NCBI RefSeq assembly: GCF_003334385.1
Contig: NZ_QOWN01000072.1
Source of the DNA: Escherichia coli
Lineage (GTDB): Bacteria > Pseudomonadota > Gammaproteobacteria > Enterobacterales > Enterobacteriaceae
Reading direction: 5' to 3' (one strand)
DNA length: 7,350 bases
Part shown: positions 1,867 through 5,645 of the stretch, piece by piece
Position numbering within the stretch: the first letter of the stretch is position 1
Layout of the letters: each line of letters begins with the position of its first letter
Notes under the pieces: model-generated
What the model saw: the letters and a program-made list of their open reading frames with translations, nothing else
What the model was told of the DNA's origin: nothing
Database searches by the model: none
Program-made: the position numbers and the translations under genes

Positions 1867-2100
1867 TCAGTCAGAGTTTCTTGCTAACCAGCGACGCGCG
1901 CCAGCTTCCGTTTTAAACGTTTTGCTTCTGGTATACGTCATCGCGGTAAACGTGCCGTCCAGGTTGGGGAATACTCCACATACCAGAGATTCGCTGTTGC
2001 CAAGATCGATAGTATCCATGTTGACCTCATTTCCCCTTAACGCCGGGGTAGCGGAACAAAAACCTGCTGCATAGTTATTAAAGTTGAACCCTGCCGTCAT
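1867..2100 (-). CDS. hypothetical protein (77 aa), first gene downstream of the pL-like promoter
   Basis: ORF track 1867..2100 (-). ATG at 2100..2098 with GAGG about 9 nt upstream. Translation MTAGFNFNNYAAGFCSATPALRGNEVNMDTIDLGNSESLVCGVFPNLDGTFTAMTYTRSKTFKTEAGARRWLARNSD. Not arginine-rich like lambda N; no family recognised. Confidence 0.55.
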   Translation of the reverse strand: MTAGFNFNNYAAGFCSATPALRGNEVNMDTIDLGNSESLVCGVFPNLDGTFTAMTYTRSKTFKTEAGARRWLARNSD

Positions 2101-2196: not shown

Positions 2197-2238
2197 ACAA
2201 TAGCACTGCTATTTTATTCTGTAAATAGTAATGCTATT
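2197..2238 (-). promoter_or_regulatory. OL/pL-like unit: two operator palindromes (ATAGCA-N-TGCTAT type) overlapping a leftward promoter
   Basis: Site A aatagcactgctatt (2199-2213) is a perfect 15-bp palindrome. Site B aatagtaatgctatt (2224-2238) has one mismatch. Centres are 25 bp apart. On the minus strand, -35 TTTACA (plus 2225-2220), a 17-nt spacer and -10 TATTGT (plus 2202-2197) overlap the sites. Same half-sites and geometry as the OR region. Confidence 0.45.
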
Positions 2239-2254
2239 GTTTTTTGGAGGTAAG

Positions 2255-2278
2255 AAAAAAAACCACCCGAAGGTGGTT
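2255..2278 (-). terminator. rho-independent terminator ending the repressor-antitoxin-toxin operon
   Basis: Minus-strand RNA forms AACCACC-UUCG-GGUGGUU (7-bp stem, UUCG tetraloop; plus 2261-2278) followed by a U-tract (plus A-run 2255-2262). Sits 15 nt downstream of the toxin stop codon. Confidence 0.75.
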
Positions 2279-2292
2279 GTTGGTAGGAATGA

Positions 2293-2583
2293 TTAACAGC
2301 TTTTGTTTGGATACTGCCTTCGTGAGTGAACTACATTTACGATCTCGATGTTAGATGCTGTTACTCGGTAAAGTATTATGTAGTTAGGATGGGTCACTAT
2401 CTCACGAAGGCCTAGAGCTCTTTCGCTTGGTGGATACAGGTAAGGGTGTTCAGTAAGTGACAAAACTGATGTTTCAATGCGTATTTTTAGTCTACGTGCA
2501 GCGGGAGGGTTTTCCTTGGCAATATAGGCTACGATCTGACGCAAATCATCACGCGCAGAAGGTAGCCATAAAATGGGCAGCAT
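2293..2583 (-). CDS. parE: type II toxin, RelE/ParE family (ParE-like), 96 aa
   Basis: ORF track 2293..2583 (-). Translation MLPILWLPSARDDLRQIVAYIAKENPPAARRLKIRIETSVLSLTEHPYLYPPSE...GLREIVTHPNYIILYRVTASNIEIVNVVHSRRQYP matches the ParE/RelE pattern from memory. Its ATG overlaps the antitoxin stop (TAATG). Resembles parE of the prophage paaR-paaA-parE systems; paralog number cannot be determined. Confidence 0.85.
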   Translation of the reverse strand: MLPILWLPSARDDLRQIVAYIAKENPPAARRLKIRIETSVLSLTEHPYLYPPSERALGLREIVTHPNYIILYRVTASNIEIVNVVHSRRQYPNKSC

Positions 2584-2774
2584 TACTCACTCCTGTTCGT
2601 CGAAGCTATTTGCGCAATAAGGTTTTCCATTTCAGCCATTACTTCGTCATGCGGAATTGCAGGACGGGGGTCTGCGAGGCTTGCTGCCACTTTGGTGCGT
2701 AACCATTCGTTATAGCTGTTTTCTTGTTCGATTGTTTCAAATTCTGAAATTATCGGGGAAAGGACTGTACTCAT
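2583..2774 (-). CDS. paaA: small antitoxin (63 aa), PaaA-like partner of the ParE toxin
   Basis: ORF track 2583..2774 (-). Lies immediately upstream of, and is translationally coupled to, the ParE-family toxin. GAGGAGG SD 7 nt before the ATG at 2774. Acidic 63-aa protein, the size I recall for PaaA2. Assignment rests on context and length, not a search. Confidence 0.7.
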   Translation of the reverse strand: MSTVLSPIISEFETIEQENSYNEWLRTKVAASLADPRPAIPHDEVMAEMENLIAQIASTNRSE

Positions 2775-2791
2775 GTTCTAACCTCCTCAGA

Positions 2792-3292
2792 TTAGGCGCG
2801 ACGACCTTTTTGCGCCTCTAGCCACCGCGCAACGGTTTCTTCAATTGATTCTTTTTTCTCCTTCATTTCCTTAAGCATTTTCTCTTTGTCTTCTTTTGGG
2901 AAAGCCCTGAACGTCTGGATCAAATCTCGCTCTATAGGTTCTATATTAAACGGAAGTTCGTTTTCCGATTGTTCCATCTCTGCGGGTAAAGCGACAACAT
3001 TATCCTGCTGCAGTTCTTGGGGGTACATCCTTACAATTCGTAACAAGTCTGCCATATCTGGTCTAATTGACTCAGGCGGAACTTGTAGCAACCCAGCGAA
3101 CTTGATAACAGCCTCTAGATTTAAAGGTGTCTGACCATTTAGATAATGGCTTACTGCCCCTTGTGTCGAAAAACCCAGAATTTCTGCCGCACGCTCTTGG
3201 GTTAACCCAAGTTGAGTTTTTTTCGTCGTCCAGATTTCTTTCAGTCTCTGGGCGGCTTGCAGGTCGATCTCTGACAGGGGTTTTCTTTTCAT
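2792..3292 (-). CDS. paaR: HTH (XRE/Cro-CI family) transcriptional repressor, 166 aa; candidate prophage immunity repressor and regulator of the toxin-antitoxin operon (PaaR/RacR-like)
   Basis: ORF track 2792..3292 (-). N-terminal HTH LGLTQERAAEILGFSTQGAVSHYLNG. No LexA/S24 peptidase-like C-terminus. Divergent from the ydaS/ydaT pair across an operator-containing spacer. Stop lies 17 nt before the antitoxin start. Confidence 0.85.
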   Translation of the reverse strand: MKRKPLSEIDLQAAQRLKEIWTTKKTQLGLTQERAAEILGFSTQGAVSHYLNGQTPLNLEAVIKFAGLLQVPPESIRPDMADLLRIVRMYPQELQQDNVVALPAEMEQSENELPFNIEPIERDLIQTFRAFPKEDKEKMLKEMKEKKESIEETVARWLEAQKGRRA

Positions 3293-3399
3293 ACCTTCAA
3301 TTCTAATAAGATTATTAATCTCTTTGAAATAGCGGTGCTATTTACCTTTAAAAATAACAATGCTATTAATATTCATGGTCACATAACATGAGGTGAACA
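3293..3399. promoter_or_regulatory. OR-like divergent promoter-operator region between the repressor and ydaS
   Basis: Operator 1 aatagcggtgctatt (3328-3342) and operator 2 aataacaatgctatt (3353-3367), centres 25 bp apart. Rightward pR-like promoter: -35 TTTACC (3341-3346), 17-nt spacer, -10 TATTAA (3364-3369). The leftward repressor promoter could not be placed; GAAGG abuts the repressor ATG, so the mRNA may be short-leadered. Confidence 0.5.
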
Positions 3400-3663
3400 A
3401 TGAATCTTGGAGAATATTTGCATCATTCCCGTATAACCCAGAAAGATTTTGCTGAAATTGTTGGGGTAACCCAAGGGATGGTAAGCCATGTTATTACTGG
3501 ACGGGCGAAACTTACGGGGGGGAAAGTTTTACGCTGGTGTGAAGCAACAGGGTGGGTAGTGACCCCGCACGAGATTGATAGCAGTACTTACCCCAACCCA
3601 ACCGATGGCATACCTGTTGACTATCAGGCTAACACACAACCCACGCTGGGAGTTGATTCATGA
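3400..3663 (+). CDS. ydaS: Cro-like HTH protein YdaS (87 aa)
   Basis: ORF track 3400..3663. Motif GVTQGMVSHVITGRAKLTGGKVLRWCEATGWVV matches YdaS/Cro-like proteins paired with YdaT in Rac-type prophages. GAGGTG SD at 3390-3395. Stop overlaps the ydaT start (ATGA). Confidence 0.8.
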   Translation: MNLGEYLHHSRITQKDFAEIVGVTQGMVSHVITGRAKLTGGKVLRWCEATGWVVTPHEIDSSTYPNPTDGIPVDYQANTQPTLGVDS

Positions 3664-4085
3664 AAATCAAGCATGAACACATCCGCATGGCGATGAATGT
3701 CTGGGCGCATCCGGACGGCGAAAAAGTACCGGCTGCGAAAATTACCAAAGCGTATTTCGAGCTGGGAATGACGTTCCCGGAACTGTATGACGACAGCCAT
3801 CCGGAAGCCCTGGCCCGTAATACCCAGAAAATTTTCCGCTGGGTGGAGAAGGACACCCCTGATGCTGTTGAAAAAATTCAGGCGCTGTTACCGGCGATCG
3901 AAAAGGCGATGCCGCCTTTGCTGGTGGCCCGTATGCGCAGTCACAGTTCTGAATATTACCGGGAGATCGTCGAACGACGGGATCGGCTGGTGAAAGATGT
4001 GGATGATTTTGTCGCAGCGGCGATCGCCTGGGGCACCCTGACTAACAGTGGTGGTCAGCCTGGTAATGCTGTTGTTGTGCATTGA
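3660..4085 (+). CDS. ydaT: YdaT-family protein (141 aa), the toxic / CII-equivalent partner of YdaS
   Basis: ORF track 3660..4085. Starts MKIKHEHI and is 141 aa, matching my recollection of E. coli Rac YdaT. GGGAG SD 8 nt upstream. A Chi octamer GCTGGTGG lies at 3920-3927. Confidence 0.85.
   Translation: MKIKHEHIRMAMNVWAHPDGEKVPAAKITKAYFELGMTFPELYDDSHPEALARNTQKIFRWVEKDTPDAVEKIQALLPAIEKAMPPLLVARMRSHSSEYYREIVERRDRLVKDVDDFVAAAIAWGTLTNSGGQPGNAVVVH
3920..3927 (+). other. Chi octamer GCTGGTGG (single copy, inside ydaT)
   Basis: Exact plus-strand match to 5'-GCTGGTGG-3' at 3920-3927. No reverse-complement copy was found in the window. Confidence 0.5.
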
Positions 4086-4153: not shown

Positions 4154-5191
4154 ATGGCTAATGCCTGGCTCAGATTGTGGCATGACATGCCAAATGACCC
4201 CAAGTGGCGAACGATTGCCAGGGTATCAGGACAGCCAATCGCAACAGTGATGGCAGTGTATATCCACCTTCTGGTGAGCGCGTCACGAAATGTCACGACA
4301 TGTCACGGCGTGTCACTACGTGGTCACATTGATGTCACGACGGAAGATTTAGCAAGTGCGCTTGATGTGACGGAAGACGTAATTGATTCAATTTTGCATG
4401 CAATGCAGGGGCGGGTTCTGGATGGTGACCTTATTTCCGGATGGGAAAAACGTCAGGTGCTGAAAGAGGACAATGGTAACGTTTCGCAAACGGCAAAATC
4501 CCCGGCAGAGCGCAAGAGAGCGCAGCGGGAGCGCGAAAAGCTGCGGAAATATGATGCTGATTGTCACGATGAGTCACGACGTGTCACGCATCTGTCACGA
4601 CAAGTCACGACAGATAAAGATACAGATACAGAATTAAACCCCACACATAACGCGCGCATGCGCGAGAGTGCTCCAACCGGTGAGTCGCATGGTGCGCCGT
4701 TGCAGACAGCCGAACCTGAATACCTGGACGGCCTGAGCGAACCGATCGGGAAATTTTCGATGACTACTGTCTGGCAGCCGTCGTCGGATTTTCGACAACG
4801 GGCAGCAGTGTGGGGTATGGCTCTGCCTGAGCCGGAATTTACACCTGCTGAGCTTGCCGCATTCCGGGATTACTGGATGGCGGAGGGGAAGGTTTTCACG
4901 CAGGTTCAGTGGGAGCAGAAATTTGCCCGCCACGTGCAGCACGTCAGGGCACAGGTAAAACCAGTCAGCAAGGGGGTAAGCCATGCAGCATCAGGTGGCA
5001 CGGCATCACGGGCAGTTCAGGAAATCCGGGCAGCACGCGAACAGTGGGAACGTGACAACGGATTTATCAGCAACGGAAACGGCCTGGAAGCTGTGGGAGC
5101 TTATGGGGGAGGTGTATTCGAACCGCTGGACACAGAAGAACGGGGCCGCACCTTCGAAGCTCTGGATTGCCCAGATTGGCGCGATGACTGA
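4154..5191 (+). CDS. replication initiator, lambda-O-like: replisome-organizer N-terminal domain, internal iteron-encoding segments, C-terminal region resembling a DnaT-like domain (345 aa)
   Basis: ORF track 4148..5191; preferred start is ATG 4154 with GAGGTG SD at 4145-4150. N-terminus WLRLWHDMPNDPKWRTIA is typical of phage replisome organizers. C-terminal TVWQPSSDFRQRAAVWGMALPEPEFTPAELAAFRDYWMAEG looks DnaT-like (from memory). Two iteron arrays lie inside the gene. Confidence 0.85.
   Translation: MANAWLRLWHDMPNDPKWRTIARVSGQPIATVMAVYIHLLVSASRNVTTCHGVSLRGHIDVTTEDLASALDVTEDVIDSILHAMQGRVLDGDLISGWEKRQVLKEDNGNVSQTAKSPAERKRAQREREKLRKYDADCHDESRRVTHLSRQVTTDKDTDTELNPTHNARMRESAPTGESHGAPLQTAEPEYLDGLSEPIGKFSMTTVWQPSSDFRQRAAVWGMALPEPEFTPAELAAFRDYWMAEGKVFTQVQWEQKFARHVQHVRAQVKPVSKGVSHAASGGTASRAVQEIRAAREQWERDNGFISNGNGLEAVGAYGGGVFEPLDTEERGRTFEALDCPDWRDD
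4281..4342 (+). repeat. iteron array 1: six direct repeats of a TGTCACGAC-like unit at 10-11 bp spacing
   Basis: GTCAC cores at 4282, 4292, 4302, 4312, 4323 and 4334. A degenerate GTGAC copy follows at 4367-4371. The array encodes SRNVTTCHGVSLRGHIDVTT within the initiator. Confidence 0.6.
4561..4640 (+). repeat. iteron array 2 (five TGTCACGAC-like repeats) with adjacent A/T-rich GATACA repeats; candidate origin core
   Basis: GTCAC cores at 4563, 4573, 4583, 4594 and 4604, followed by gataaagatacagatacagaattaaacc (4613-4640). Layout parallels lambda ori (iterons plus an A/T-rich region inside the O gene). Confidence 0.6.
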
Positions 5192-5645
5192 ACAGCAAAT
5201 CCGGCTGGTCTGCCGTCAGTGCATGGACCGCTGCCGGGCGGGTGAAACGTGGCCCCCAGACCTGGCTGAGTTTGTTGCACTGATTTCGGAGAGTGGGGCA
5301 AATCCATTTGGTCTTACGGTGGATGCAGTGATGGAAGAGTACCGGCGCTGGCGCAATGAATCCTGGCGATACGACGGGAGTGATAAATACCCGTGGCCAC
5401 AGCCTGTGCTGTACCACATCTGCCTCGAAATGCGTACCAGAGGGATTGAGCGCCAGATGACGCAGGGTGAGTTAAAACGACTTGCGGAACGGCAACTGAC
5501 GAAATGGGCAAAGCATGTTGGTAACGGGATGAGTGTTCCGCCAGTGCGACGACAACTGGAAGGGGCGAAACACCCGCAAGGGCCAACGCCAATTGAACGG
5601 CTGAAACAGGAATACGAACGCCGGAAGGCAGCTGGTTTTATTTGA
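4983..5645 (+). CDS. replication protein, lambda-P-like helicase loader (220 aa as drawn; start uncertain)
   Basis: ORF track 4983..5645. Segments WPPDLAEFVALISE, KYPWPQPVLYHI, ELKRLAERQL and SVPPVRRQLE align with lambda P as I remember it. ATG 4983 has the best SD (AGGGGG, 6 nt) but overlaps the O-like gene by 209 nt. Alternative starts are ATG 5103 (weak SD) and ATG 5184 (ATGACTGA overlap with the O stop). Confidence 0.75.
   Translation: MQHQVARHHGQFRKSGQHANSGNVTTDLSATETAWKLWELMGEVYSNRWTQKNGAAPSKLWIAQIGAMTEQQIRLVCRQCMDRCRAGETWPPDLAEFVALISESGANPFGLTVDAVMEEYRRWRNESWRYDGSDKYPWPQPVLYHICLEMRTRGIERQMTQGELKRLAERQLTKWAKHVGNGMSVPPVRRQLEGAKHPQGPTPIERLKQEYERRKAAGFI

Follow-up and report, generated by a model that had tools for sequence, protein, structure and literature searches.

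A predicted lambdoid immunity region of Escherichia coli with a PaaA-ParE toxin-antitoxin pair downstream of a lambda cI-like repressor gene

Three genes and their products

We analysed a 7,350-nucleotide stretch of Escherichia coli DNA (contig NZ_QOWN01000072.1; the window), which carries a minus-strand unit of three genes encoding a helix-turn-helix (HTH) repressor, an antitoxin and a toxin. In the list of open reading frames (ORFs) the repressor gene, a putative analogue of cI and paaR, spans 3292..2792 (-; 166 amino acids (aa)). It is followed by a PaaA-type antitoxin gene at 2774..2583 (-; 63 aa) and a ParE-family toxin gene at 2583..2293 (-; 96 aa), both of which were also identified by profile matches. 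Between the repressor stop and the antitoxin ATG lie 17 nt (2775-2791) that include a GAGGAGG Shine-Dalgarno sequence. The antitoxin stop and the toxin start share the A of TAATG, an overlap by which toxin translation is predicted to be coupled to that of the antitoxin. An intrinsic terminator (2253..2278, -) with a 7-bp stem, a UUCG loop and a U8 tail lies 3' of the toxin gene. Its stem-loop, AACCACC-UUCG-GGUGGUU, occupies 2278..2261 (-) and precedes the U8 stretch; the folding energy was -10.4 kcal/mol (z = -2.87 against shuffles). The stem is kept in diverged relatives, one of which has a UUAG loop. A preliminary description of this DNA had placed the same three genes at 2255-3292, with the 17-nt gap, the TAATG overlap and the UUCG terminator, and all of these were seen in the ORF list and the sequence.

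The HTH regulator gene is the first of the predicted operon and the sole terminator follows the toxin gene; a promoter and terminator scan of the minus strand called neither between the three genes. We infer that repressor, antitoxin and toxin are co-transcribed. The ratio of nonsynonymous to synonymous substitution rates (dN/dS) was 0.05-0.21 for all three, indicating purifying selection, and we therefore regard them as real genes and not chance ORFs. They were intact at every locus examined. Plus-strand ORFs over this unit, such as those at 2457-2702 and 2886-3134, were set aside as shadow ORFs.

For comparison we used the paaR2-paaA2-parE2 locus of phage Evi (LR597642; L006) as reference, because its ParE equals the ParE2 sequence in the PDB and its regulator begins MQKKE, in line with the N-terminal sequence published for PaaR2, together with three E. 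coli loci (L002-L004). The Evi parE2 gene, at L006 3501-3779, encodes a protein identical to PDB ParE2 and is unannotated in the record.

The antitoxin matched Pfam PF21217 (PaaA2) with E 3.7e-22 as the sole domain in its 63 aa, with no DNA-binding domain recognized by Pfam, and it matched the PaaA2 structure 3zbe with E 1.7e-22. It also scored above the cut-off of NCBIfam NF050103 (92 bits versus 50), for which the NCBI name is 'RelB family antitoxin'. With 11 D+E versus 4 K+R and a computed isoelectric point (pI) of 4.4 it is as acidic as had been proposed.

The toxin is basic (pI 9.7) and matched Pfam PF05016 (ParE_toxin) with E 4.4e-18 and ParE2 of E. coli O157:H7 (PDB 5cw7) with E 5.7e-35, 59 of 93 residues (63%) being identical. 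The search against ParE2, PaaA2 and Pfam ParE_toxin that had been suggested earlier therefore returned significant matches for both proteins. Neither resembled RexA or RexB in sequence: searches of Pfam, PHROG, NCBIfam and PADLOC gave only the PaaA2 and ParE/RelE families. By analogy with the known pair, the ParE-family protein would be toxic and PaaA would neutralise it. It is decidedly unlikely that the toxin is a RelE-type ribosome-dependent mRNase instead of a ParE-type poison of DNA topology. Its top NCBIfam match, RelE_StbE (26.9 bits), falls slightly below the cut-off of 27.9, RefSeq names it 'RelE/ParE family toxin', and PF05016 covers both RNases and gyrase inhibitors (PMC11980606), all of which would suit an mRNase. 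However, its identity to ParE2 is 63% and to the second O157 copy 85%, and the reported colocalisation of ParE2 with the nucleoid and its induction of the SOS response (PMC8630535) are better explained by DNA damage than by translation arrest.

In the 166-aa repressor HTH_3 (residues 27-74) was the sole Pfam domain and Peptidase_S24 was without a match, in agreement with the proposal of an HTH repressor lacking an S24 peptidase domain. The N-terminal DNA-binding domain (residues 1 to ~92) resembles that of lambda cI and has a basic arm, MKRKPL, at its N-terminus. This domain matched the lambda cI structure 1lmb in a phmmer search (E 1.6e-9), and in Foldseek the repressor model aligned to lambda cI N-terminal domain structures with template-modelling (TM) scores of 0.81-0.94, root-mean-square deviations of 1.1-2.1 Å and 38% identity. 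The predicted local distance difference test (pLDDT) of the AlphaFold (AF2) model was 84-92 across the N-terminal part. A predicted disordered linker (residues 90-112) leads to a PaaR/DicA-type C-terminal domain (residues 119-166), modelled as a helical hairpin at 119-165. The C-terminal ~64 residues are 58% identical (E 2e-22) to the regulator of an O157 paaR-type locus. The C-terminus also matched the DicA model NF007257 with E 9e-7, at 28.7 bits far under the family cut-off of 101. A sequence search of the PDB found no solved PaaR structure. Homology to PaaR-type regulators is limited to the C-terminal ~48-64 residues, and the earlier likening of the unit to paaR-paaA-parE thus held for the antitoxin and the toxin; it did not extend to full-length homology with PaaR2, the shared part of the regulator being the C-terminal ~64 residues and the N-terminal domain lambda cI-like.

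The acidic residues E34 and D38 of lambda cI, which we take to be its positive-control residues, align with E and E in the window repressor, and this would fit activation of the promoter for repressor maintenance (PRM) from an adjoining operator. Since the protein has no S24/LexA-type C-terminal domain, RecA-mediated autocleavage is not expected. PaaR2 likewise is without a RecA-cleavage motif (PMC8630535).

Some relatives of the repressor (P0016 and P0020, from loci L010 and L011) are 244-255 aa long and have two tandem HTH domains: a lambda-like HTH is followed by a complete 434-like HTH and then by the PaaR-type C-terminal domain. Relative to these proteins, the window repressor is without the middle, 434-like HTH domain.

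Operators, promoters and regulatory genes

The three-gene unit is bracketed by copies of a 15-bp palindrome, AATAGCnnnGCTATT. A left pair lies at 2199-2213 and 2224-2238 and a right pair at 3328-3342 and 3353-3367, and the palindromes of each pair are 25 bp apart. Counting strand-matches, AATAGCnnnGCTATT occurred 9 times versus 1.4 expected, and none of 200 shuffles reached 9. This agrees with the proposal that the unit sits between sites resembling the right (OR) and left (OL) operators, at the position of rexAB in lambda.

On the right, the OR1-like operator AATAACAATGCTATT (3353..3367) lies over the spacer and the start of the -10 element of a PR-like promoter (3341..3369, +; TTTACC, 17-nt spacer, extended -10 TGcTATTAA). 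The OR2-like operator AATAGCGGTGCTATT (3328..3342) overlaps the -35 of that promoter by two bases and abuts the -35 of a PRM-like promoter (3300..3328, -; TTCAAA, 17-nt spacer, TAGAAT), which is the geometry of lambda OR2 for activation. In relatives with 91% and 80% identity over the repressor region, the OR half-sites AATAG/CTATT, including those of the OR1-like site, are unchanged and the centres vary; the right-hand OL site is also kept. A possible weak third site at 3302..3318 (9/15 match to OR1; palindrome TAATAAGATTATTA; family D2, offset 51) lies over the PRM-like -10, and its assignment as a third OR operator is speculative.

The PRM-like -10 ends 7 nt ahead of the A of the repressor ATG. 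In phage Evi paaR2 has GATAAT, 6 nt and ATG, and the leaderless start of paaR2 was mapped by rapid amplification of 5' cDNA ends (PMC8630535). With the -10 so near the ATG, as in the mapped paaR2, a leaderless repressor mRNA is the best prediction for the window.

On the left, a PL-like promoter (2197..2238, -; TTTACA, 17-nt spacer, TGcTATTGT) coincides with OL1 (2199-2213) and OL2 (2224-2238) and presumably drives the leftward operon that runs from a ydfA-like gene through DicF to dicB. The PR-like promoter, which fell under the scan threshold and was found by eye, mirrors the PL-like promoter (inverted repeat I1) and is predicted to drive the Cro-like and YdaT genes downstream of it. Our promoter calls rest on position, on this mirror symmetry and on conservation. 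A promoter-like sequence (3120-3147) and a terminator-like sequence (3196-3211) on the plus strand inside the repressor gene were taken as chance.

The first rightward gene (3400..3663, +; 87 aa; phrog_35) encodes a Cro-like HTH protein at the position of YdaS, with an N-terminus specific to this immunity type. The second (3660..4085, +; 141 aa) encodes YdaT, a CII analogue that matched the CII-like activator family phrog_163 with E 2e-46 and is 83-91% identical to YdaT of heteroimmune relatives. An exact copy of TTGATT-N6-AATCAA is present at the junction of the two genes (3653..3670) and is unchanged in 4 heteroimmune loci; this is the published high-affinity site of YdaT, where the promoter equivalent to that for repressor establishment (PRE) is located in prophage CP-933P (PMC9986795).

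A leader of ~90 nt (2101-2190) separates the PL-like promoter from the ydfA-like gene; it is conserved across heteroimmune loci including phage Evi, and the operators beside it differ among the same loci.

The arrangement of these sites bears on the role of the HTH protein. A dedicated regulator of a three-component toxin-antitoxin system (a split antitoxin) that does not act as lysogeny repressor would match the first account of paaR-paaA-parE, in which PaaR had to be present for its own operon to be fully repressed (Hallez 2010, as reported in PMC4803016). We consider this very improbable for the window. The same palindromes lie over the divergent PR-like and the distant PL-like promoters, beyond the upstream region of the operon, and the gene occupies the cI/dicA position, facing a Cro-like gene. 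Its N-terminal domain is lambda cI-like, and no other cI candidate was present among the ORFs of the prophage immunity region. The same repressor family precedes other cargo in relatives, and PaaR2 itself was shown to repress PR and PL (PMC8630535).

Relation to CP-933P, lambda and Qin

The closest experimental precedent is the paaR2-paaA2-parE2 region of CP-933P, a cryptic prophage of E. coli O157:H7 (Hallez 2010; Jurenas 2021, PMC8630535). There PaaR2 is a cI analogue: it is leaderless, forms an octamer in solution, gives footprints over OR and represses PR and PL, and at low dose it activates PRM (PMC8630535). YdaS is the Cro analogue, YdaT the CII analogue that activates PRE, and PaaR2 and YdaS together make a bistable switch; the locus stabilises an unstable mini-F plasmid (PMC8630535). 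According to the legend of Fig. 1 in the paper on the structure of YdaT, parE2 and paaA2 'replace rexB and rexA' (PMC9986795). The preliminary description had suggested that one regulator serves both lysogeny and the toxin-antitoxin pair, the latter in place of rexAB, and this has been shown by experiment for the homologous CP-933P; PaaR as a cI analogue with toxin and antitoxin at the rexAB position is therefore already published (PMC8630535, PMC9986795). The window locus is a further, heteroimmune member of this paaR-paaA-parE/CP-933P-type module, with another DNA-binding specificity.

Likeness to CP-933P (Sp12) extends to gene order and strand logic, a 63-aa PaaA without a DNA-binding domain and ParE as the last gene. 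The unit likewise lies between OR and OL and faces ydaS (cro-like) and ydaT, with the same YdaT site, and it has a similar leaderless PRM geometry, no S24 domain and a conserved regulator C-terminal domain. In contrast, the window repressor has 166 aa and is lambda cI-like, whereas PaaR2 has ~123 aa, the MQKKE start and an unrelated N-terminal region. The operators differ as well (AATAGCnnnGCTATT in the window, GTTTAGTAA repeats at the PaaR2 locus), as do the Cro-like proteins. The window toxin is 63% and the antitoxin 74% identical to the CP-933P proteins. The C-terminal tail of the antitoxin differs from that of PaaA2, making cross-neutralisation unlikely. The two O157 paralogues were reported not to cross-neutralise (PMC4803016).

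The closest pair was found at L002, in O157:H7 strain Xuzhou21, with a toxin 85% and an antitoxin 86% identical to those of the window and the same antitoxin C-terminal tail. At this locus the C-terminal domain of the regulator shows 58% identity over 64 aa and YdaT 83%; its regulator differs in having 133 aa with a 434-repressor-like N-terminal domain, and the Cro-like protein is a different one. From its map position and a neighbouring 'ECs1072 family' gene, L002 is probably the CP-933M/Sp4 copy, paaR1-paaA1-parE1. The regulator of L004 is 64% identical to that of L002.

The compared loci share a conserved toxin-antitoxin pair, C-terminal regulator domain and YdaT, and differ in the N-terminal regulator domain, Cro-like protein and operators. 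Judged from these sequences, the paaA-parE cassette goes with at least four immunity types: lambda-like (the window), 434-like (L002 and L003), diverged 434-like (L004) and PaaR2-like.

With lambda cI-rexA-rexB the window shares a homologous repressor N-terminal domain, operators at OR and OL, a predicted leaderless repressor mRNA from a PRM-type promoter abutting an operator, and passenger genes between the repressor gene and PL. The passengers PaaA and ParE resemble RexA and RexB only in position and are unrelated to them; a further difference is that the window has two clear 15-bp operators per side, 25 bp apart. With the DicA/DicC region of Qin it shares the left flank (a ydfA-like DUF1391 gene, DicF and dicB) and a DicA-like repressor C-terminus. 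The window flanks match PPompW-type phages annotated with dicA/dicC, 36% of the query being covered; this match leaves out the immunity region of the window, and no toxin-antitoxin pair was among the annotated features under it.

Taken together, the window very probably represents the immunity region of an E. coli prophage of lambdoid (Qin/CP-933-like) type, in which the 166-aa protein is the cI-equivalent repressor and the toxin-antitoxin pair is a passenger in the place of rexAB, likely serving addiction. We propose that the lambda cI-like N-terminal domain would bind the AATAGCnnnGCTATT sites at OR and OL, and that the helical PaaR/DicA-type C-terminal domain would oligomerise the repressor, giving cooperative binding and perhaps looping between OL and OR. 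Bound repressor would turn off the PR-like promoter, and with it the Cro-like and YdaT genes and then the replication genes, as well as the PL-like promoter of the ydfA, DicF and dicB operon. From the operator abutting the PRM-like -35 the repressor would stimulate its own leaderless transcript. This transcript, and one from a YdaT-activated PRE-like promoter, would read on into paaA-parE and end at the UUCG-loop terminator. PaaA would be an unstable, acidic protein without DNA-binding activity and would neutralise ParE, a probable poison of DNA topology and inducer of SOS. On loss or replacement of the immunity region PaaA production would end and the cell would be killed, stabilising the prophage and its immunity module. 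Addiction is accordingly the most likely function of the pair by analogy; like DNA binding, the leaderless start and bistability with the Cro-like protein, it is inferred from the CP-933P homologue.

Several observations weigh against this interpretation. The repressor's DNA-binding domain and its operators differ from those of PaaR2, and binding and the order in which the sites would be filled are thus predictions. Only two operators per side are clear, the third OR site being doubtful. The promoter scan as a whole did not exceed chance (3 found versus 2.7 expected), and the PR-like promoter was read by eye. Activity of ParE2 was undetected in either state of the CP-933P switch, and for its subfamily the 'precise target remains to be uncovered' (PMC8630535); Pfam ParE_toxin, as mentioned above, also takes in RelE-type RNases (PMC11980606). 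In the prophage of E. coli JNEC-KY176, which is nearly identical to the window, the portal gene is frameshifted, making a live role in the lysis-lysogeny decision uncertain there.

The cargo slot and the host prophage

The slot downstream of the repressor gene holds different cargo in relatives. A HigB/HigA-like pair matching the PADLOC models PD-Lambda-2_A/B occupies L007 3612-4339, a HipA_2 and DUF3037 pair matching PDC-M66A/B occupies L010 3787-5360, and a 178-aa protein of unknown function is encoded at L009 3653-4189. These loci illustrate the slot 3' of the repressor gene as a cargo bay for toxin-antitoxin and defence pairs. Such variety also argues against a fixed association of the PaaR-type C-terminal domain with paaA-parE. 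A functional coupling of that domain to the toxin-antitoxin pair had been considered on the basis of DNA similarity to O157 loci that spans from the toxin gene to the last ~100 nt of the repressor gene. We rejected it: P0016 has the same domain but HipA_2 and DUF3037 downstream, more distant relatives have HigBA or an unknown gene at this place, and for the homologue no complex of the three proteins was found (PMC4803016).

Varied slot cargo, together with the published recognition of the interval from cI to PL/N as a mosaic hotspot that houses rexAB and BstA (PMC8585504), makes a role of PaaA-ParE in exclusion conceivable. The pair would then be chiefly an abortive-infection module and both a functional and a positional counterpart of rexAB: a superinfecting phage would stop host or PRM transcription, or trigger PaaA degradation, freeing ParE so that the infected cell dies. 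The PADLOC matches of slot cargo in relatives are in line with this, as are reports of RelE/ParE superfamily members in defence (PMC11980606). We nevertheless regard it as unlikely. PADLOC models matched none of the three window proteins, we found no published report of defence by PaaA-ParE, and the only demonstrated functions of the homologue are plasmid stabilisation and addiction, with which an exclusion role would be compatible. Equally limited trust is warranted in the broader proposal that PaaA-ParE is an anti-phage exclusion module placed on the promoter of the lysogeny repressor and that the interval between repressor gene and PL is a bay into which defence cassettes are swapped. If true, a ParE-type toxin would be an abortive-infection effector whose expression reports the immune state of the prophage. 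The value of the locus is modest, the architecture, the lambda analogy and the regulation having been published for CP-933P. With its lambda cI-like domain and clean 15-bp palindromes the window may be easier to work with than PaaR2 for questions of how a repressor without an S24 domain reads its operators and how the prophage is induced.

The window is 99.2% identical to part of a prophage of ~57 kb in E. coli JNEC-KY176, inserted between potB and potC (L005/L001; NZ_AP045172 3322000-3380000). This prophage carries integrase, excisionase and exonuclease genes, with dicB, DicF and the ydfA-like gene on the left and, on the right, genes for the Cro-like protein and YdaT, for O/P-like replication proteins and for lysis, head and tail. 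Several genes are pseudogenes. Along with the frameshifted portal gene, and with the location of the CP-933P homologue in a cryptic prophage, this would suit a reading of the three window ORFs as decaying remnants with no present function. That is extremely improbable given that all three remain intact at the loci examined, that dN/dS stays in the range given above even with saturating dS, and that conservation extends to the operators, terminator stem and YdaT site.

Of 5,426 complete E. coli genomes, 72 had this immunity type, 70 of them with the whole repressor-antitoxin-toxin unit. Relatives of at least part of the unit occur in at least 588 E. coli genomes. Among 50,697 phage records, phage Evi is the only one with a ParE of this kind.

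The JNEC-KY176 prophage further carries an S6-family autotransporter peptidase gene, a YadA-like adhesin gene and an OmpC porin gene as cargo. In the leftward part of the window the DicF antisense small RNA (806-857, -) matched Rfam RF00039 over its full length with 62 bits. It lies upstream of dicB and a DUF1482 gene (430-618, -, and 245-433, -), as in a Qin-type cell-division-inhibition operon. A 148-aa ORF at 1322-1768 (+; WP_000373333.1) is opposed to the leftward operon and encodes two hydrophobic helices and a helical tail; it had no match in Pfam, NCBIfam or PADLOC and matched only PHROG 6315 (function unknown), and it could be a moron transcribed from a promoter of its own.

Two ORFs differ from their annotation in the position of the start. 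At 1867-2100 (-) the mechanical ORF has 77 aa, of which RefSeq annotates the last 50 codons only, as DUF1391 (ydfA-like); the longer start is perhaps real, because PHROG 751 matches residues 10-77. The mechanical ORF of the P-like replication gene (4983-5645, +) starts 200 nt upstream of the annotated gene (5184-5645) and overlaps the end of the O/DnaT-like gene, its start probably being a mere upstream in-frame ATG.

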